Below are positions 11,331 through 53,504 of a DNA stretch of 64,000 nucleotides, piece after piece. Where the stretch lies: IMG/VR virus record IMGVR_UViG_3300027963_000066, positions 11,996 to 75,995 of that record. One strand, written 5' to 3'. This stretch comes from a virus. Each line of letters starts with the position of its first letter. Positions within the stretch are counted from its first letter, which is position 1. The position numbers and the translations under genes are program-made. The notes beneath the pieces were generated by a model. It was not told the origin of the DNA. It worked only from the letters and a program-made list of their open reading frames with translations, and searched no databases.

Positions 11331-12265
11331 TATAGATGGCTTCGAAAATAATCAATAGTTTTAATTAACCCTTGCTCTAGGTTAATAGTAGGCTCCCAAT
11401 TGAGCATGGCTTTTGCTCGAGTGATATCCGGCCTGCGCTGTTTTGGATCATCCTGAGGTAAAGTTTGTTGTAATATTTGGCTCTTACTTCCGGTTAATTC
11501 AATGACCTTATGTGCTAATTCCCACATGGTAAACTCCCCAGGATTACCGATGTTAACTGGCCCAATAAAAGAGTCGTCTGGATGATTCATCATGGCTTGT
11601 ATAGCATCTAACAGATCATCAACATAGCAGAAACTGCGAGTTTGCATACCGTCTCCGTAGATAGTAATGTCGCGACCTTGCAATGCCTGTACCACAAAAT
11701 TACTAACAACTCTGCCGTCATTCTGTGCCATTCTAGGACCATATGTGTTAAAAATACGCACAATTTTGGCCTTAACATCGTGTGTGCGATAGTAGTCCAT
11801 GAACAAGGTTTCCGCGGCTCGTTTGCCTTCGTCGTAGCAACTGCGTATACCAATTGGATTTACATTGCCCCAATATTCCTCAGGTTGAGGATGAACTGTG
11901 GGATCACCGTAGCACTCACTGGTTGACGCCTGTAAGATTTTAGCACCAGTACGTTTGGCCAGTCCCAACATATTGTAAGAACCAATTACACTGGTTTTCA
12001 TCGTCTGGATTGGATCCCATTGATAATAAAATGGACTCGCTGGACAAGCAAGATTGTAGATTTCATCTACTTCTACATACAGAGGCAGGCAGATATCTTG
12101 TCGGATAACTTCAAAGTTCTTGTTATCTAACAAGTGTGCAATATTATTTTTACTGCCTGTAAAATAATTGTCTACACAAAGAACATGATGTCCTTCTTTG
12201 ACTAACCGTTCGCAGAGATGACTGCCTAAGAAACCTGCTCCGCCTGTTACTAAAATTTTTTTCAT
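11330..12265 (-). CDS. UDP-glucuronate decarboxylase (UDP-xylose synthase-like)
   Basis: [39 protein letters not shown]. Confidence 0.92.
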
Positions 12266-31711: not shown

Positions 31712-31747
31712 ATAACAATTATTATACGCTGTTAAAATAATTAAGTC

Positions 31748-31777
31748 AAAAAAATAGGACTCCGAAGAGTCCTATTT
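31748..31777 (-). terminator. Intrinsic terminator
   Basis: AAATAGGACTC-TTCG-GAGTCCTATTT followed by a T run. Confidence 0.88.
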
Positions 31778-31934
31778 AACAGGCTAGTTGTCTACTTTGA
31801 GTTTATATCGGTGTCAATATCGAAACACACCTATCTAGTTTGTCTTCAGCTATAACCTTCAAAGCCCATACAGGCTCCAGTTATAACCAACTCCCTAGCA
31901 TTCCTTTAATATTAAAGGTTGCTGAACCTAGCCT
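31778..31934 (-). ncRNA. CAGCAA-helix RNA copy 1
   Basis: AGGCTAG-GTTCAGCAA...CTAGCCT-GTT. Confidence 0.75.
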
Positions 31935-31945
31935 TATAACACTAT

Positions 31946-33337
31946 TTATAGAACGCTGTAGCGATCTACATCAACAGTGGCTAGCATGATACCGTATGGA
32001 GTCATGTCAGTACCACTTAGGATACCCTTCATAACTGCTGGACTAAACCCGCTAACCAACGCGGTACCGCGCTTGTCGAACTTAACAGGGACATTGTCCC
32101 GGCTGTTCAGGTTCCAGAATACAATGTTTGGAACTTCGTATCCTGCATCCTTGTACTTACGCTTGATCATTTGGTGAGCAGAGTCATCAAAACTTACGCA
32201 TTGATCAAACTGCATATCCGAAAGGATCAGCAAAGTCTTTGGCATGTCACTTGCGTTCACACCGCCCTTGACTGCGATGCGTAGGATTTCGTCAAACGCC
32301 GCATGTAGGTTAGTGTTCATGCCCCAGTCGCTAGAGTTCATTTGTGCCATCTTTTCAGATAGCGAACCCTTAACGACCTGTGCCTTTGGCTTAGCACTGA
32401 AAGTCAAGAATGTATCCTTGAATACACCTGTGTTCTTATCAGCACAGTACAGACCCAACGACAGGGCAATATCGATGCACATTAGGTTAGCGTTTCCGCC
32501 AACTGGGCATGACATCGAACCGCTAACGTCAACCAAAGGCATAACGCTGGCATCGCCAATGTAGTTTGGCAACGATGCCCATTGAGCATCTGCTACCACA
32601 CTGTCGCCACCATGACGCAAGGTCTTGATGACATCGTATGGGTAAACCGCACTAGCGTTTACCTTGTCAGTACCTGCAGTCAAACGAGCCTTGTAGGCAG
32701 TGTAAGACGCAGAAGCATTCTTGGCAAATGCCTTGTTGTAACGAGCACTGGCTAGACTTGGCAACTTACCGAATTCGATAGAATCCCAGTCCTTTGCACA
32801 CATCTTGCTTTCGACAACATTGGTCAACGCAACCAAACTCTTACGGTAGAACTTTGGAGTCATACCATAGAAGTTACGGATTTCAACCGCGATTGGGCCT
32901 TGACGAGGCATCCATTTGGCACACAGACCGTTGCGTTCACGCAGTGCATCACCGATTAGGGTATAGGCCATGTGTTTGAACTTTTCAGTCTTGAATACCA
33001 GCAAGTCGTCCCAACGGCCGAACTCGCTTACGAAAGGAAGAACTGCTTCCAGAGTTTCTGGATGCAACTTTTCCAGATGTACAAGTACATCACGGAACAG
33101 CTGACGTTCACCTGCGCCACCACGGACATCACGTGACCAGAACGCAATCTTCATTGCAAGGTCACTGTCTTCCTGGAAAGCCTTTTCGAAGTCTGCGGTC
33201 ACAGACTTACCACGGCTTGCACCAATCTTGTAGAACAAATCTACAAGGGCATTGCCCGAATGGGCCTTTGCCTTCATACCGTTTTCGGTACGAGCTACCT
33301 CTGGGGTAGACTTAACTGCTTCAGCGAAAGTGATCAT
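31946..33337 (-). CDS. DUF2828-like TROVE/vWA (Ro60-related) protein
   Basis: TENG, RDVRGGAGER, FGRWDDL, AKWMPR, MIDAS DVSGSM, ILSDMQFD, IVFWNL, LVSGFS. Confidence 0.85.
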   Translation of the reverse strand: MITFAEAVKSTPEVARTENGMKAKAHSGNALVDLFYKIGASRGKSVTADFEKAFQEDSDLAMKIAFWSRDVRGGAGERQLFRDVLVHLEKLHPETLEAVLPFVSEFGRWDDLLVFKTEKFKHMAYTLIGDALRERNGLCAKWMPRQGPIAVEIRNFYGMTPKFYRKSLVALTNVVESKMCAKDWDSIEFGKLPSLASARYNKAFAKNASASYTAYKARLTAGTDKVNASAVYPYDVIKTLRHGGDSVVADAQWASLPNYIGDASVMPLVDVSGSMSCPVGGNANLMCIDIALSLGLYCADKNTGVFKDTFLTFSAKPKAQVVKGSLSEKMAQMNSSDWGMNTNLHAAFDEILRIAVKGGVNASDMPKTLLILSDMQFDQCVSFDDSAHQMIKRKYKDAGYEVPNIVFWNLNSRDNVPVKFDKRGTALVSGFSPAVMKGILSGTDMTPYGIMLATVDVDRYSVL

Positions 33338-33360
33338 TTCGTTCTCCTTTCTTTAAAATG

Positions 33361-33413
33361 ACAGGATGCTTTTTTTACTATAAGAAAAGTATAAAAATTG
33401 CTGTAAGCATCCT
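33361..33413 (-). ncRNA. CAGCAA-helix RNA copy 2 (5' leader of the TROVE/vWA gene)
   Basis: AGGATGCTT-ACAGCAA...AAGCATCCT-GT. Confidence 0.75.
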
Positions 33414-33442
33414 AAAAACTTTTTGTTTCTTTCTAAGCATTA

Positions 33443-33471
33443 ATTATAGCGTATAAGTCATTGTTTGTCAA
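33443..33471 (-). promoter_or_regulatory. Consensus sigma70 promoter
   Basis: TTGACA-17 nt-TATAAT. Confidence 0.85.
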
Positions 33472-33488
33472 CAACTTTATTAGCCAAA

Positions 33489-34094
33489 TTACATTGTAGG
33501 ACCGTTCCCGGACTTAAAACCTACACTACCACCCTCTGCTTCAATGCGAGCAATAACATCTTCAAACAAGATAGGAGCAAAGTCTGGAAGTTGTTCTACG
33601 CAAACGCAGTGGTATCTAACATCAATCTCATCGCTGTACAAGACTTCTCCAGTACGGGCATCGACACCTCTCGCCTTCATAACTCTGTTGGCGTGTAAGT
33701 GTCCGTGTATATTACAACCAAACCTGCCAAGGCTTGCTTCGTGAACAGGAATATGACTTAAAATAAGTCCATTCATGACATGATACGCTCGTAATTCACG
33801 GAAGTACTGCCTGTACTCGTCATCACGGAAAATGTCGTGGTTACCACGGATCAAAACCTTGTCACCGTTTAATCGGGCCAATGTCTTTAATGCCTTTCGA
33901 TTAATAACCACATCGCCCAAATGATATATTTTATCTGTAGGCTTAACACGGTCGTTCCAAGCCTTGACCATTGCTTCGTCCATCTCATCTGCGTCATCCC
34001 ATGGCCTTAACTTTGTAACACCATCGTTACGTGTGAAGCGGCATACACCTGTGTGACCAAAGTGTGTGTCGCTGACTAAAAATACACTAGGCAT
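33489..34094 (-). CDS. Calcineurin-like metallophosphoesterase
   Basis: SDTHFGH, HLGDV, RGNHD, SHIP, IHGHLH. Confidence 0.92.
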   Translation of the reverse strand: MPSVFLVSDTHFGHTGVCRFTRNDGVTKLRPWDDADEMDEAMVKAWNDRVKPTDKIYHLGDVVINRKALKTLARLNGDKVLIRGNHDIFRDDEYRQYFRELRAYHVMNGLILSHIPVHEASLGRFGCNIHGHLHANRVMKARGVDARTGEVLYSDEIDVRYHCVCVEQLPDFAPILFEDVIARIEAEGGSVGFKSGNGPTM

Positions 34095-34104
34095 ATTCGC
34101 CCCC

Positions 34105-35130
34105 TTAAATAATGTTAACTAACGATTTTACCCACCACAAGTTTTTATCCAATGTGACCTTTGTCTTAGCTTCTATAATTATAGCATCTTTAACAATTTC
34201 TGGATAATAATTTTTATCAAAAATAATTTCTTTGGCTCTTGCTTGATTACGTATTATTTTGTCTTTAACTTTGTCATTTAGCATCTTAAGCTCACCGATG
34301 GGTGTTTGGCATAGATTCTTAAAATTTTCAATGATCATACCAAACCTTTTTTCCATATCTGGCTCTTGATCAAAACTGTAGTCAAATATTTCGTCGTATA
34401 ATTCAAACCCTAGATCTTGAATATGTCTAAAGAATCCGTGTCCAGACGCAGTTAAAAATGGTTTACCCACTAATAATGCCGTGGCAGTTTTTTCTGTTAT
34501 AAAAATATCTTTGTGAACACTTTCACTGATCAGTTGCGCAAATGATTCATGATACTGAGCGGGAATTAAGTGCTGATCAGTGTGACCAGCAAATCCATCA
34601 AGATCTAAAATTTGAGGAACAAAATATTTAAAATCATATGCAGGGTTTGGTTGTGACCACGAAACGTTGGCAAACTGTAGTAGATCATGTTTAGCAACCT
34701 GATCGATCAGATAACATCTATGCCAATGAGGTTTATGATTAAGATAAACAAAATGTTTTTTAAATTCTAAATCCGTTTTTATTTCTAATCTAGTTTTCTT
34801 TCGAATGACCAATTCGAAATATGTTTTCTTCAACCAACAAGTTGGCCAGAAATGTATTTCTACATTAGGGTGCGGCGGAGGAGCATCAACACTTGCTATT
34901 CCTGAAGTGATAACAAATAGTTTTTTGTTACTTTCAGTAAGAGCCGTTACAAGCCTATCCCAGTATTTAAAATCTTCATTGACCAATGACCAATATTGAT
35001 ATTCGTTGTGAGCAAATAAAATTACAGCATCCTTATCAGTAGTTCGGATACGATCCGGAATGGTAAGTTTAAAATCATCGGAATCCCATATATCAAAACA
35101 CAGGTATTTTAATTCTTGTGATAAAATCAT
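34105..35130 (-). CDS. Hypothetical protein (possible glycosyltransferase-like)
   Basis: LISES...FITEKT...GKPF...DYSFD. Confidence 0.6.
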   Translation of the reverse strand: MILSQELKYLCFDIWDSDDFKLTIPDRIRTTDKDAVILFAHNEYQYWSLVNEDFKYWDRLVTALTESNKKLFVITSGIASVDAPPPHPNVEIHFWPTCWLKKTYFELVIRKKTRLEIKTDLEFKKHFVYLNHKPHWHRCYLIDQVAKHDLLQFANVSWSQPNPAYDFKYFVPQILDLDGFAGHTDQHLIPAQYHESFAQLISESVHKDIFITEKTATALLVGKPFLTASGHGFFRHIQDLGFELYDEIFDYSFDQEPDMEKRFGMIIENFKNLCQTPIGELKMLNDKVKDKIIRNQARAKEIIFDKNYYPEIVKDAIIIEAKTKVTLDKNLWWVKSLVNII

Positions 35131-35150
35131 AATGATGCTATATCCTATTT

Positions 35151-35615
35151 TTATACTGCATACCAAATTTCCTTAAACCCTTCTTCTTCTGAAGGCATTT
35201 CAAAACTTGCCAGCATTCCTTCTATTACAGCATCCGGAATGTCTTTCCCAGGACGGCCGTCCAATCGACGCTTTAATTCAAGCCTTGACGGTGTTTCAAA
35301 TACCACAGCAATATGATCGTAGCCGGGCAACATGTTAAATTTACGCAGACGACTTGTTACGGTAGTACTAGTTTGATCCCAAATAATGTCTCGACCCGCT
35401 TCTCGAGCTTTAACAACATCGCCTGCCATTAGATTAACACATTCTGGCATGACCTCAGTAAAAACTTCACTGTAGGTTTTGCCCATATCTTTGGCAAATT
35501 TTTCAACATAGACATCGGTGCTGATATAGGCACAGTCGCCTGCCCAATCTTGATTAGCTACCCAGGTACTTTTACCAGAACCAGGCACTCCGACCAATTG
35601 ATAACATTTAGGCAT
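35151..35615 (-). CDS. Polynucleotide kinase-like P-loop kinase (AAA_33)
   Basis: GVPGSGKST, ISTD, IIWDQT, P..EEGF. Confidence 0.85.
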   Translation of the reverse strand: MPKCYQLVGVPGSGKSTWVANQDWAGDCAYISTDVYVEKFAKDMGKTYSEVFTEVMPECVNLMAGDVVKAREAGRDIIWDQTSTTVTSRLRKFNMLPGYDHIAVVFETPSRLELKRRLDGRPGKDIPDAVIEGMLASFEMPSEEEGFKEIWYAV

Positions 35616-44636: not shown

Positions 44637-45431
44637 TTATTCGATGCCTAGAGATTTTCTAATCTTGGTAGCACTGATATCGGTAATTGTAGAATCAAAA
44701 GATTCTTGCTCAATTTTATACCCAACATCTCTACCATACGTGATGTTAACAATATTAGGCACTACCTGTATAGTATACTGTCCCTGGTACTTAGGGTCAA
44801 GATCTCTTCGAATAAATTTAGTAACTTTTTCAAGTTCAAACGGATTACTGCCCTGCCAGCCTTGGCAGTCTCGTATCATAATACAGACCTGTCCAGTTTT
44901 AGCGATGGCACGTTCAAATAAGGCTCGATGTCCTTCGTGCCAAGGTTGCCAACGACCCAGCATCTGTACTGTTTCTCGTTGCCAATCAAACACCGGGCGT
45001 CGACGATTGTCTAAAATGTGTGCGGCAATAAACTCGCCCCACCATTCGGCACGTTGTTCGGTGATTCTAAAGTCATAGACTTCGGGTTCTTGGAACATGG
45101 CATTGGTGTCGGCGTAACGTCCTTCACGTATTGTGTCTACCCAAACGGTCCAATCTGCTTTAAAGTTATTGCGCATCTCGGCCAAGGGTGCTACAAAATC
45201 ACAGATCACATAGTCCATATCTGACATTGCATCGGCAAGTTCACGCATACGCTTACTCTGGCGAATCCGTCCAGCTTCACTGAAATCCCAATCGTCATAC
45301 TTCTTACGTACATCGTCGGCATTGAGCCAACCAATGCGCTTGCCTTCCCGTTGAAGGTAGTCAACAACCCATTGTGCCAGTGTTGTTTTACCTGAGCCTG
45401 GCAATCCCATGATTAGTATTCGTTTAGTCAT
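44637..45431 (-). CDS. Adenylylsulfate kinase-like domain fused to HIGH nucleotidyltransferase
   Basis: GLPGSGKTT, LNADDVR, DFSEAGR; GRWQPWHEGH; start MTKRIL. Confidence 0.85.
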   Translation of the reverse strand: MTKRILIMGLPGSGKTTLAQWVVDYLQREGKRIGWLNADDVRKKYDDWDFSEAGRIRQSKRMRELADAMSDMDYVICDFVAPLAEMRNNFKADWTVWVDTIREGRYADTNAMFQEPEVYDFRITEQRAEWWGEFIAAHILDNRRRPVFDWQRETVQMLGRWQPWHEGHRALFERAIAKTGQVCIMIRDCQGWQGSNPFELEKVTKFIRRDLDPKYQGQYTIQVVPNIVNITYGRDVGYKIEQESFDSTITDISATKIRKSLGIE

Positions 45432-45447
45432 GCAGGTATTTATTTTA

Positions 45448-45524
45448 TGGTACCTCGTCTCAGATTCGAACTGAGAGCCAACAGATTTTGAATCTATCCG
45501 CACTACCAATTAGCGTAACGAGGC
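45448..45524 (-). tRNA. tRNA-Leu(CAA), short variable loop
   Basis: Loop TTCAAAA, CCA. Confidence 0.85.
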
Positions 45525-45526
45525 AA

Positions 45527-45647
45527 AACAGGTTCTCATTTTTTGTGCTACCACTACACCAACACCGCTGACCAAGCAGTGCCCAGGATTCGAACCTGGC
45601 CCGTCTTTTTTACAGAAAGATTTTAATAAGATTGCTGAAAAGAACCT
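45527..45647 (-). ncRNA. CAGCAA-helix RNA copy 3 enclosing a circularly permuted tRNA(GUA)
   Basis: AGGTTCT-TTTCAGCAA...AGAACCT-GTT around anticodon arm, T-arm, capped acceptor stem, D-arm. Confidence 0.85.
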
Positions 45648-45661
45648 AGATGGTCAAATAA

Positions 45662-45771
45662 AACAGGATGAGCTGTCATGGCCGGGAATCGAACCCTATT
45701 TCAGACAATGTCCCCAAATGGACGGCCTCGCGAAATGTGGAGCGAGTAAAATGGTTTGCTGTAATCATCCT
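45662..45771 (-). ncRNA. CAGCAA-helix RNA copy 4 with mini tRNA-like domain
   Basis: AGGATGA-TTACAGCAA...TCATCCT-GTT; internal GGG-TTCGATT-CCC T-loop. Confidence 0.75.
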
Positions 45772-45787
45772 AAAACTAAATATTTGT

Positions 45788-46288
45788 ATGAACCGACTTC
45801 TTGAATATTTGGATTTGCCTAAATTGCCTGCCGAACTGATCGAAGAAGCAAAGTTAAGCACACAGATCAATCCAAATGTTTTTATTTTTAAAGACTATTC
45901 AGCTTACAAAATCTTTGATGCTACTGAATCAATCTCAGAATACACTCGTAGTATATTTGATTTTCCGCACCATACAAAAGTACAATTGATATCAGGGGAC
46001 ATCGCCATACACATTGATTATGGTCGATCAGTAGTTTATAATTATCTAATTGACTATCCTGGAGAAATAGCTTACTCTTGCCACTATCAAACTAGCGATC
46101 CTGCTAGTTTGATCAGTAAGGAAGCATTAACACCAGACTGCTGGTCTAGATTAGATGTCAGTGTTTATCACAATCTTTTAGGAGTCAAGGTTCCGAGATT
46201 GTTTATCAGTGTTGCTCCTATAGAAAAAATATCCAAAGAAGATATTCGACGGAGCAGACAATGGTACAAAGAATTTGGAGCGGGATAG
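45788..46288 (+). CDS. Hypothetical cupin/oxygenase-like protein
   Basis: IHID...YHN...PRLFIS; TAAATA before ATG 45788. Confidence 0.6.
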   Translation: MNRLLEYLDLPKLPAELIEEAKLSTQINPNVFIFKDYSAYKIFDATESISEYTRSIFDFPHHTKVQLISGDIAIHIDYGRSVVYNYLIDYPGEIAYSCHYQTSDPASLISKEALTPDCWSRLDVSVYHNLLGVKVPRLFISVAPIEKISKEDIRRSRQWYKEFGAG

Positions 46289-46465: not shown

Positions 46466-47332
46466 ATGATTAACATCTTAAAAGAATACACCAGTAAAGA
46501 TTTGAGTAAAAAACTGATCCTGTCATTGCATGATCAAGCCGTTGTTGAAAGTGTGATAATGCCCGAGTCTGCACTGGGACCGTCGGCACTTTGCATCAGC
46601 GTTCAGGTAGGTTGTGCAGTAGGATGTACTTTTTGCAAAACTGGTCAAGATGGTCTGAAGCGTAATTTATCCGCTGACGAAATTATCGATCAATTGACCA
46701 TCGCCGAAGAACAAAAATTTATAGATTTTATAGTGTTCATGGGCATGGGCGATTCTGCCCACAACATTGATGCTGTACTAACGGCAGTTGAAGAATTTGT
46801 TCATCGAGGAAAAAATAAAGATAAACTTCTTGTCAGTAGCATAGGCACAGATAAGTTTTTTGATAAATTAGAATCTGCAGTGGTTAAACCCAGACTAGCA
46901 GTCAGCCTGCATTCTGCAATAGATGCCACTAGAAAATCTATAATTCCCATGGCCAATTTAATGAGTGTACAAGAATTGATCGAACGCTCTCAACAGTATG
47001 CACAATTAACCAATCGAAAAATCATGTATCAATTGACCATGCTGGCTGGAGTCAATGATACCGATGAAGAGATTTCAACAGTTATAGATCAATTAACACC
47101 ATACAAACAGCATTCTATTATACAGATAATACCTTGGAATTTTATATCCGATGCAATGTTTACCTGTACACCCCAATCTAAAATTAAAGAAATAGTTGAT
47201 CGATTTAGGAATCTAGATTTTGATGTTAGGCAAAGATATTCTTTTGGACAAGATATAGGCGCGGCCTGCGGCCAACTGTCGTCACAAAATCAATTGGCTC
47301 CCCAGGGTGGGATCGAACCACCGACACCCTGA
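46466..47332 (+). CDS. RlmN/Cfr-family radical SAM RNA methyltransferase
   Basis: CISVQVGCAVGCTFCKTG, FMGMGD, AVSLHS, GVND, DIGAACGQL. Confidence 0.9.
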   Translation: MINILKEYTSKDLSKKLILSLHDQAVVESVIMPESALGPSALCISVQVGCAVGCTFCKTGQDGLKRNLSADEIIDQLTIAEEQKFIDFIVFMGMGDSAHNIDAVLTAVEEFVHRGKNKDKLLVSSIGTDKFFDKLESAVVKPRLAVSLHSAIDATRKSIIPMANLMSVQELIERSQQYAQLTNRKIMYQLTMLAGVNDTDEEISTVIDQLTPYKQHSIIQIIPWNFISDAMFTCTPQSKIKEIVDRFRNLDFDVRQRYSFGQDIGAACGQLSSQNQLAPQGGIEPPTP

Positions 47333-48111: not shown

Positions 48112-48317
48112 GTCTAGCTACCTACACCACATAGGCCCTAGACTGAGCAGTTACTCTGTCCATAACATTTATTCTTTTGGAAAGGTGTTATACCTCACCT
48201 AATGCGTTCCCGCCACTCCTCTACAGAGTACGGATGGTCAATGCATTACACACCTGGCGCTCTCTATGGTGACTGCCCCACCCTCCTTCGCTAACGGGCA
48301 GGAGTGCCCGGGTTTTC

Positions 48318-48382
48318 AACAGGTTAATACTAGTTTAACGTCCTAGCAGACAGCCATTTTTTTTAATCGCTGTAATTAACCT
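48318..48382 (-). ncRNA. CAGCAA-helix RNA copy 5
   Basis: AGGTTAAT-TACAGCGA...ATTAACCT-GTT. Confidence 0.72.
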
Positions 48383-48387
48383 AAAAC

Positions 48388-49637: not shown

Positions 49638-50234
49638 ATGCTCTACACTGAATTTGAATCTATTGCCTTGCCCTATCTACAGTCTAAAGACCGTGTAGCA
49701 GTTATGGTCAGCGGCGGATTTGACAGTGCAGTCTTGTTGTACAGTCTGTGTCTAGTAAAGTCCTCACTCAAACTTGCTGTCAGCATCAGTACTTTTACAG
49801 TACCATTACACAATGATTCTGAACGATATTCAAGAATGGTCACCGCATGGGTGGGTAACAGATTTTGTCTAGACCTAACTCCTACAATATGTGGCGATCC
49901 CGATCTTGCACATAATCAAGTGGTCAAAAGTGGGATTGCTCATGCTGTAAGCATTTGCCCGAATATAATCATCGCCGAGACTACTAATCCGTCACATTTG
50001 ACAAATCTTAGTTCAGCTCCTGCACGTACACGAGCTCTTAAAATATTCCAACCATTTATCAATTGGACTAAAAAAGAAACTGTGAAATTATCTATTGATT
50101 TGGATCTAGACGACCTTGTGTCGCTTACACACAGTTGTACGGAAAAAACTGTGCGATGTAATCAGTGCTGGCAATGCCAAGAGCGGGCCTGGGGATACGC
50201 AGAAAACGCATACCCTGATCCGGGCTGTTATTAA
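49638..50234 (+). CDS. QueC-like PP-loop protein
   Basis: VSGGFDSA; THSC...CNQCWQC.ER. Confidence 0.78.
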   Translation: MLYTEFESIALPYLQSKDRVAVMVSGGFDSAVLLYSLCLVKSSLKLAVSISTFTVPLHNDSERYSRMVTAWVGNRFCLDLTPTICGDPDLAHNQVVKSGIAHAVSICPNIIIAETTNPSHLTNLSSAPARTRALKIFQPFINWTKKETVKLSIDLDLDDLVSLTHSCTEKTVRCNQCWQCQERAWGYAENAYPDPGCY

Positions 50235-51750: not shown

Positions 51751-51757
51751 ACAATAA

Positions 51758-51815
51758 AACAGGTTGCTTATTTTTCAATTAAAAGTTGAATTGGTAAATT
51801 TGCTGAACGCAACCT
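51758..51815 (-). ncRNA. CAGCAA-helix RNA copy 6 with Lys(UUU)-like anticodon arm
   Basis: AGGTTGC-GTTCAGCAA...TTCAA-CTTTTAA-TTGAA...GCAACCT-GTT. Confidence 0.75.
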
Positions 51816-51820
51816 AAAAA

Positions 51821-52467: not shown

Positions 52468-52474
52468 AAAATAA

Positions 52475-52538
52475 AACAGGTTCCGCTTTTGAGATCAAAT
52501 TTCGAGTTTGAGTTTTTAAAGTTTGCTGTAAGGAACCT
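52475..52538 (-). ncRNA. CAGCAA-helix RNA copy 7 with Ser(CGA)-like anticodon arm
   Basis: AGGTTCC-TTACAGCAA...TCAAA-CTCGAAA-TTTGA...GGAACCT-GTT. Confidence 0.75.
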
Positions 52539-52543
52539 AAAAC

Positions 52544-53426: not shown

Positions 53427-53504
53427 TGGTCTCCATGGTACGATTCGAACGTACAGCCTCCTGACTCCAGATCAGGCCGTCTACCAGATTGACATTACAC
53501 AGAG
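53427..53504 (-). tRNA. tRNA-Pro(UGG), atypical C33
   Basis: Loop TCTGGAG, CCA. Confidence 0.8.

Follow-up and report, generated by a model that had tools for sequence, protein, structure and literature searches.

A permuted tRNA-shaped RNA on a CAGCAA handle: a probable Y RNA-like member of a modular phage RNA family

On the minus strand of a phage tRNA region lies an element (45525–45651) in which an anticodon-like hairpin, a T arm, a loop-sealed acceptor stem and a D arm can be read one after another, enclosed by an outer helix with a CAGCAA motif. The DNA analysed, here called the window, is a 64,000-nucleotide stretch (positions 11,996 to 75,995) of IMG/VR record IMGVR_UViG_3300027963_000066, a 76-kb phage record for which CheckV gives a completeness of 21%. 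The element is probably a stable non-coding RNA belonging to an extensive, modular family in phages, in which a handle would dock a Ro60-like ring protein and tRNA-shaped cargo would act as the effector. It can be read as a divergent Y RNA of the YrlA type, CAGCAA replacing GNCGAA, and is most likely a partner of the Ro60-like protein.

Architecture of the element and conservation of its fold

The element is flanked by tRNA-Gly on one side and by tRNA-Leu(CAA), which starts at 45524, on the other, and all 33 tRNA genes that ARAGORN reports in the window lie on the minus strand. Read 5' to 3' on that strand, the outer helix of the handle opens with AGGUUCU (45647–45641), which pairs with 45536–45530 and in the relatives described below has 96.7% of its cells paired and two-sided changes in four of its seven pairs. 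Three nucleotides past this helix (UUU-CAGCAA) comes the CAGCAA motif (45637–45632), invariant among those relatives, and then an anticodon-arm-like hairpin (45620–45604) of 5 bp with the 7-nt loop CUGUAAA, three of whose five pairs covary. The variable loop CGGG (45603–45600) is 4 nt long, a spacing that is 4–5 nt in most family members, and leads to a T arm (45599–45583) of 5 bp with loop UUCGAAU, paired in 100% of cells and with two covarying pairs. The acceptor-like stem (45582–45562) is composed of a 3' strand (45582–45576) and a 5' strand (45568–45562) that form seven of seven possible pairs, two of them G-U, six of the seven showing two-sided changes; it is capped by the loop UUGGUCA (45575–45569), in which UUGGUC is kept across the subfamily, and the acceptor end has no CCA. 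A UG and a D arm of 4 bp follow (45559–45545; loop AGUGGUA, with GG; 98% of cells paired), and the remainder (45544–45525), assigned by sequence reading and from the handle model, consists of an A-rich linker (45544–45537), the 3' strand of the outer helix, AGAACCU (45536–45530), and a GUUUU tail. The strand past the D arm is unable to pair with the strand preceding the variable loop in the window copy, which places the opening of the tRNA body at position 26.

This fold is conserved in homologues. A distant BLAST search against cultured phages gave a single match, exactly as wide as the element, in an unannotated tRNA-cluster spacer of Synechococcus phage BUCT-ZZ01, and many loci built alike came up when IMG/VR was scanned by pattern. 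In an alignment of thirteen close relatives the five helices were scored for pairing and covariation. Standard pairs fill 92.3% of the cells, as against 42–52% once the 3' partners are slid by 1–3 columns, two-sided changes are found in 16 of the 28 pairs and covariation in each of the five helices, and the observed covariation was reached by none of 500 shuffles. In addition, a natural DNA variant, present on a contig of an unrelated study and sharing 97% identity over 682 nt, has double compensatory changes at two pairs of the acceptor stem (45576/45568 and 45578/45566) together with one change from G-U to A-U in that stem. Given the covariation in the relatives and the compensatory changes in this natural variant, the structure is under selection; its conservation extends from freshwater phages to phages of E. 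coli. An earlier note on this DNA had described four tRNA arms on the minus strand, opened between the D and anticodon arms, a description now confirmed by sequence reading, covariation, the natural variant and a test of hairpin geometry; their nesting in a CAGCAA helix is likewise confirmed, the outer helix itself being among those that covary.

The geometry test concerned 61 family members with a T arm, in which a hairpin of a 5-bp stem and a 7-nt loop was sought 3–6 nt before the T stem. Such a hairpin with at least 4 pairs is present in 72% of the members and in 28% of shuffles, and with 5 pairs in 34% and 3.7%, respectively. Its second loop position is U in 73%, the sixth a purine in 89% and the seventh A in 84%, a pattern that matches the anticodon-loop signature U33/R37/A38. 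The triplet varies much more than its surroundings. Ten different triplets occur among the 13 relatives (GUA, GAA, ACG, UAG, AUG, GGA, GCA, CAA and others), and of all unpaired columns of the RNA column 35 has the lowest conservation, with a pairwise identity of 0.21 as compared with 0.85 for U33 and A37. The 97%-identical natural variant carries GCA, and the nearest IMG/VR relative GAA. Free variation at positions 34–35 beside conserved flanks is compatible with diversifying selection, and equally with a plain lack of constraint.

As encoded, the element is reported neither by ARAGORN nor by Rfam, as anticipated in the earlier note, which held that standard tRNA finders would probably miss it. 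When the sequence is re-permuted in silico, as that note suggested, ARAGORN calls a tRNA-Tyr(gta), but this is weak evidence for an anticodon arm because shuffled controls are called equally. ARAGORN was therefore dropped as a test of that arm, 49 of 53 re-permuted members having been called both intact and with a shuffled anticodon 17-mer. Single-sequence minimum free energy folding was uninformative (z = −0.34) and did not recover the arms, and a search of the minus strand for a sigma-70 promoter close to the element found none.

The handle family and its Ro60-like protein

A covariance model built from the alignment of the 13 relatives finds 74 members in 100 sources, and these 74 make up the family alignment. 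Their common architecture is that of a constant handle bearing modular cargo. The handle consensus is UUUU-AGGNNNN-UU(A/U)-CAGCAA ... A-rich ... NNNNCCU-G-UU, comprising a 7-bp end helix (usually AGGNNNN/NNNNCCU), 3 nt and then CAGCAA, and the G that follows the helix is kept in 69 of the 74. Each of the first five positions of CAGCAA is conserved in 73–74 of the 74 members, whose loci had been selected on that motif; it is also present in matches from loci fetched by protein alone. The cargo may be a short hairpin only (RNAs of 60–70 nt), an anticodon-like hairpin with a T arm, or a full permuted tRNA body, and a T arm together with a closed acceptor stem is found in 53 of the 74 members. In about six of these 53 (L021, L048, L057, L064, L080, L083), though not in the window copy, the 3' acceptor strand is immediately followed by NCCA within the closing loop, which suggests that those copies descend recently from real tRNA genes or, possibly, are processed. 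Contigs of related phages match the element exactly and diverge at its borders (45527; 45658–45667), and given this divergence handle modules seem to move between genomic contexts as cassettes. The family is absent from Rfam 15, and no description of it was found in the literature searched, subscription journals lying outside the coverage. The T4 species 1 and 2 RNAs (rnaC, rnaD) were considered as relatives and rejected, since rnaC matches the model at the T arm only and neither has the handle.

Seven handle RNAs occur in the window, all on the minus strand, and for these the covariance model and an independent motif scan agree; about one motif-scan match is expected in shuffled sequence over both strands together. 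An eighth motif-scan candidate, inside a phosphoesterase open reading frame (ORF), lacks the AGG...CCUGUU form and was taken as a chance match. Two of the seven flank a gene (31946–33337, minus strand) for a protein of 463 aa with Pfam DUF2828 and DUF7788/vWA domains, assigned to PHROG 850 ('RNA-binding protein'). An AF2 model of this protein, computed from a 66-sequence alignment (pLDDT 90, pTM 0.88), was compared with known structures by Foldseek, and the 13 best PDB matches are all Ro60/TROVE proteins (E 8e-9 to 5e-5, TMq 0.37–0.66), among them Xenopus Ro60 (TMq 0.64–0.66), Deinococcus Rsr and the Ro60 of Thermus phage phiLo, with 9KOP the best. The match to Ro60 extends over the full length of the model, HEAT-repeat ring and C-terminal vWA domain included, and the modelled product of ORF 31946–33337 thus has a Ro60-like fold. 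The gene forms part of a self-contained unit (31745–33475, minus strand) running from promoter through handle RNA, Ro60-like gene and a 155-nt handle RNA to a terminator. By sequence reading the promoter is a near-consensus sigma-70 TTGACA-17-TATAAT (33471–33443) and the terminator an intrinsic one (~31776–31747). The leader handle RNA (33358–33417; 33.4 bits with the covariance model, also identified by sequence reading) sits between promoter and ribosome-binding site, and the one directly past the gene (31780–31934; AGGCUAG...CUAGCCU-G) was identified by motif scan and sequence reading, the covariance model giving a weak partial match only.

The association of RNA and protein recurs in other phages. 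Eighty viral loci, some of them near-duplicates, were fetched by the protein alone and then searched with the covariance model. At least one match is found in 53 of the 80, all 130 matches lie on the strand of the gene, and in 27 loci a match ends less than 100 nt upstream of the start codon, where about one would be expected under an even spread. Among 118 loci selected by RNA pattern, each 1–15 kb long, the Ro60-like gene is present in 16. Cultured phages give the same picture. BUCT-ZZ01 encodes a DUF2828-type protein with handle RNAs on both sides of its gene and an ortholog of the element about 9 kb away, and KVP40 has a DUF2828-type protein and two model matches. In the E. coli phages garuso and Bas63 a DUF2828-type gene is followed, in the tRNA cluster just downstream, by one handle-only and one permuted-tRNA RNA. 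In the Bas63 record (MZ501086, locus L206) the handle-only RNA (2217–2283) and the permuted-tRNA handle RNA (2759–2893) lie 0.5 and 1.0 kb, respectively, downstream of bas63_0130, which belongs to the same DUF2828 protein family; bas63_0137, an antisense 'hypothetical protein' coding sequence of 51 aa, overlies the permuted-tRNA RNA and is probably spurious. The controls T4 and T5 have neither the Ro60-like protein nor a handle RNA, and in Bxz1 and CcrColossus, which carry a canonical TROVE gene, model matches directly upstream of it show the tRNA-like domain without CAGCAA. The partner protein occurs in 710 cultured phage genomes and bears the name 'Ro-like RNA binding protein' in mycobacteriophages. 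Bas63 gp130 has been described as structurally Ro60-like, encoded just upstream of tRNA genes and able to counter the Ppl defence, and the authors of that preprint surmised that some Bas63 'tRNA genes' are Y RNAs (bioRxiv 10.1101/2024.10.10.617714).

Relation to Y RNAs and weighing of alternatives

YrlA-type Y RNAs consist of a closing stem, the motif GNCGAAN0-1G near the 5' end, an optional 'V' hairpin, and T, acceptor-like and D stem-loops, and they lie within 4 kb of a TROVE gene, on the same strand, in genomes that include 22 phages (Chen et al. 2014, PMC4201824). The earlier note's comparison with YrlA proves apt, as arm order, closing stem and kind of linkage are the same. In the element as in YrlA (RF02553), paired ends form a closing stem beside a conserved single-stranded motif; a hairpin (the 'V' hairpin of YrlA), a T arm, a loop-closed acceptor-like stem and a D arm follow in that order; and the genes of the family stand on the same strand as, and often beside, the gene of a Ro60-fold protein, among phage tRNA genes. 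The two also differ. The tRNA body of the element is opened at position 26, whereas alignment to the YrlA model places the opening within the anticodon stem; the handle family includes many cargo-free and partial-cargo members; the partner comes from the DUF2828/DUF7788 branch, missed by Pfam TROVE; and the hairpin of the element has full anticodon-arm geometry. This last difference had been put more strongly in the earlier note, according to which YrlA RNAs lack an anticodon arm. That is only partly right, in that YrlA has the 'V' stem-loop at the same place (PMC4201824) and in one CcrColossus Y RNA the T arm is preceded by a hairpin of 5 bp whose 7-nt loop reads CUGUUAA; the CAGCAA family is therefore not alone in having a fourth, anticodon-like arm. 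When other family members are scored on RF02553 they reach 31–49 bits over the full model, below its gathering score of 69 bits, and the accepted Y RNAs beside the CcrColossus TROVE gene, at 30–42 bits, also fall below it.

A second parallel is offered by Thermus phage phiLo, whose RNAs Yrl1 and Yrl2 are encoded just upstream of the Ro60 gene and form a 5'–3' stem beside an internal loop with CGAA (PMC12135203; PDB 9KOP, 9L5Y). Here too a phage Ro60-fold protein is accompanied by small RNAs upstream of its gene, with a stem beside a short conserved motif, but the phiLo motif is CGAA and no tRNA-like cargo has been described for these RNAs (PMC12135203).

On the Y RNA reading, the RNA would be cut out of the co-transcribed tRNA cluster, and its handle would serve as the docking site for the ring protein of ORF 31946–33337, much as the stem and GNCGAA/CGAA internal loop of Y RNAs dock on Ro60. 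The ribonucleoprotein would have its effector end in the tRNA-shaped module, which would present to tRNA-recognising proteins a folded tRNA elbow (T loop UUCGAAU, GG of the D loop) and an exposed anticodon loop. It may act as a tether or adaptor linking the particle to enzymes that recognise tRNA shape, or its anticodon loop may be a decoy or bait for tRNA-directed host defences; Y RNAs are known as gates and tethers in Ro60 biology (PMC12135203).

Several points weigh against this interpretation. The YrlA motif GNCGAAN0-1G is absent from the element, which has UUU-CAGCAA in its place as the family has CAGCAA; the window copy gives no match to Rfam YrlA even at E ≤ 10; and Pfam TROVE (PF05731) has no match in the 76-kb record. 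The element lies 12.2 kb from the Ro60-like gene, on the same strand and not adjacent to it, and the co-orientation seen across loci is due in part to the one-directional layout of phage tRNA regions. The leader copy at 33358–33417 could be a cis autoregulatory site rather than a free RNA. Metatranscriptome contigs from two runs cover 45527–45667 and 45660–45743, continuing into unlike sequence and giving no RNA ends; they derive from related phages, possibly from DNA, and are thus a weak hint of expression. Lastly, fold, family and genomic linkage are observed and the Ro60-like fold of the protein is modelled, whereas RNA–protein binding and the role of the particle are inferred.

A more specific version of the Y RNA reading, to be regarded as tentative and rather doubtful, is that of a modular counter-defence particle. 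One ring protein would combine with handle RNAs whose interchangeable cargos (whole tRNA bodies, anticodon-plus-T arms, bare hairpins) display anticodon loops with fast-changing triplets; host systems directed at tRNAs, whether attacking or sensing them, would meet these as baits or adaptors, and the reported anti-Ppl activity of Bas63 gp130 would be RNA-dependent.

Of the competing explanations, the one that fares best dispenses with the protein. The element would be a decoy, or a processing element of the tRNA cluster (RNase P/RNase E punctuation, anticodon-nuclease bait), and the handle would only stabilise it. Its location between tRNA genes, abutting tRNA-Leu, would suit such a role, as would an anticodon-loop signature (U at position 2, A at positions 6 and 7) that is kept while the triplet varies. 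This explanation, however, leaves unaccounted for the invariant CAGCAA, the handle-only copies and the placement of handles before or behind the Ro60-like gene in many unrelated phages, and we judge it unlikely.

Much less probable still is a circularly permuted tRNA gene whose transcript would be cut open in the acceptor loop and joined at its outer ends to give a working tRNA-Tyr. Circularly permuted tRNA genes of red and green algae yield real tRNAs with a fixed anticodon by way of a circular intermediate, and like them the element encodes the 3' half of a tRNA upstream of the 5' half; unlike the algal genes, it has a conserved loop sealing the acceptor end and a freely drifting triplet. 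In favour of this reading are the presence of all four arms, the tRNA call that ARAGORN makes after re-permutation, and NCCA right after the 3' acceptor strand in about six of 53 other members; in addition, RNase P cleavage of M. smegmatis YrlA and CCA addition are the subject of a section in Chen et al. 2014 (PMC4201824). Against this, the element lacks CCA and has a conserved UUGGUC acceptor loop instead, no part of the RNA is less conserved than the anticodon triplet, no bulge-helix-bulge motif was seen, and the 76-kb record (21% complete) yielded no RNA ligase. Handles also exist without tRNA cargo, flanking the Ro60-like gene. Tyrosine identity, which the earlier note had read from the GUA triplet, is unsupported because that triplet lies in the most variable columns and is GCA in the natural variant, and because the 4-nt variable loop is of class I, unfit for a bacterial tRNA-Tyr, while the window already holds elsewhere a normal phage tRNA-Tyr of 86 nt. 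The permuted tRNA precursor that the note had offered as an option fails on the same conserved, CCA-free acceptor loop and cargo-free handles. Its other proposal, that the RNA is unchargeable as encoded, agrees with the sealing of the acceptor end by the conserved UUGGUC loop and the lack of CCA. The element is thus neither a working nor a precursor tyrosine tRNA.

That the element is the functionless, decayed remains of two adjacent tRNA genes (a 3' half, then a 5' half) can be set aside almost entirely, for although a T4 tandem tRNA junction of the same layout gives a weak model match (23.8 bits), the acceptor strands are unpaired there, whereas in the element they form seven of seven pairs that covary in the relatives and in the natural variant, which excludes this reading, and the element is conserved from freshwater to E. 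coli phages.

The tRNA-like domain of bacterial Y RNAs has posed a question of role since 2014, and the CAGCAA family supplies hundreds of natural variants in which one constant handle carries a whole tRNA cargo, part of one or none. Members occur in tractable E. coli phages, namely relatives of Felix O1 that include Bas63 of the BASEL collection; with an anti-Ppl phenotype reported for the Bas63 partner protein in so tractable a phage, binding, processing and function become directly testable. There is also a consequence for annotation, as handle RNAs are unannotated in GenBank records and one in Bas63 is overlaid by an antisense 'hypothetical protein'.

Further handle RNAs and neighbouring genes

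The remaining handle RNAs of the window all lie, on the minus strand, at higher coordinates than the element, and each was found by both the covariance model and the motif scan. Two are handle-only members (52473–52542, 34 bits; 51756–51819, 32.3 bits), and a third handle-only member (48316–48386, 29 bits) has the variant motif CAGCGA. The fourth (45660–45775, 25.3 bits; motif scan 45771–45664) stands in tandem with the element and carries a different, T-loop-bearing cargo, made up of a 4-bp GGCC/GGCC stem around a D-arm-like hairpin, a linker and a 3-bp T-like arm (GGG-UUCGAUU-CCC), which resembles a small tRNA-like fold with its arms in the usual order but lacking the anticodon stem. A plus-strand ORF (45668–46288) runs antisense over this tandem RNA, its true start being probably later, near 45788.

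Upstream of the Ro60-like unit, on the same strand, are genes for a calcineurin-like phosphoesterase (33489–34094, just upstream of the unit), a protein of 353 aa (34105–35166) that resembles a GT-B glycosyltransferase in its structure model, and a P-loop kinase of the AAA_33/polynucleotide-kinase-like type (35151–35615). Kinase and phosphoesterase (region 33489–35615) could heal RNA ends. An RNA-repair cassette beside the Ro60-like gene was nevertheless rejected, the model of ORF 34105–35166 looking like a GT-B glycosyltransferase and not like an RNA ligase. In the 76-kb record, 21% complete, the RtcB and Rnl2 ligase families gave no match; an Rnl1 search also gave none there, and was blind in all control genomes too and hence uninformative.

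The tRNA cluster holds further features. A borderline match to the Rfam tRNA model (53431–53503, minus strand, 31.5 bits) is not called by ARAGORN. Two plus-strand genes, for a radical-SAM protein (46466–47332) and a QueC-like PP-loop protein (49638–50234), lie antisense within the cluster. Right after tRNA-Leu, a minus-strand ORF (44637–45434) encodes an APS-kinase/KTI12-like P-loop domain followed by a weakly cytidylyltransferase-like C-terminal part.
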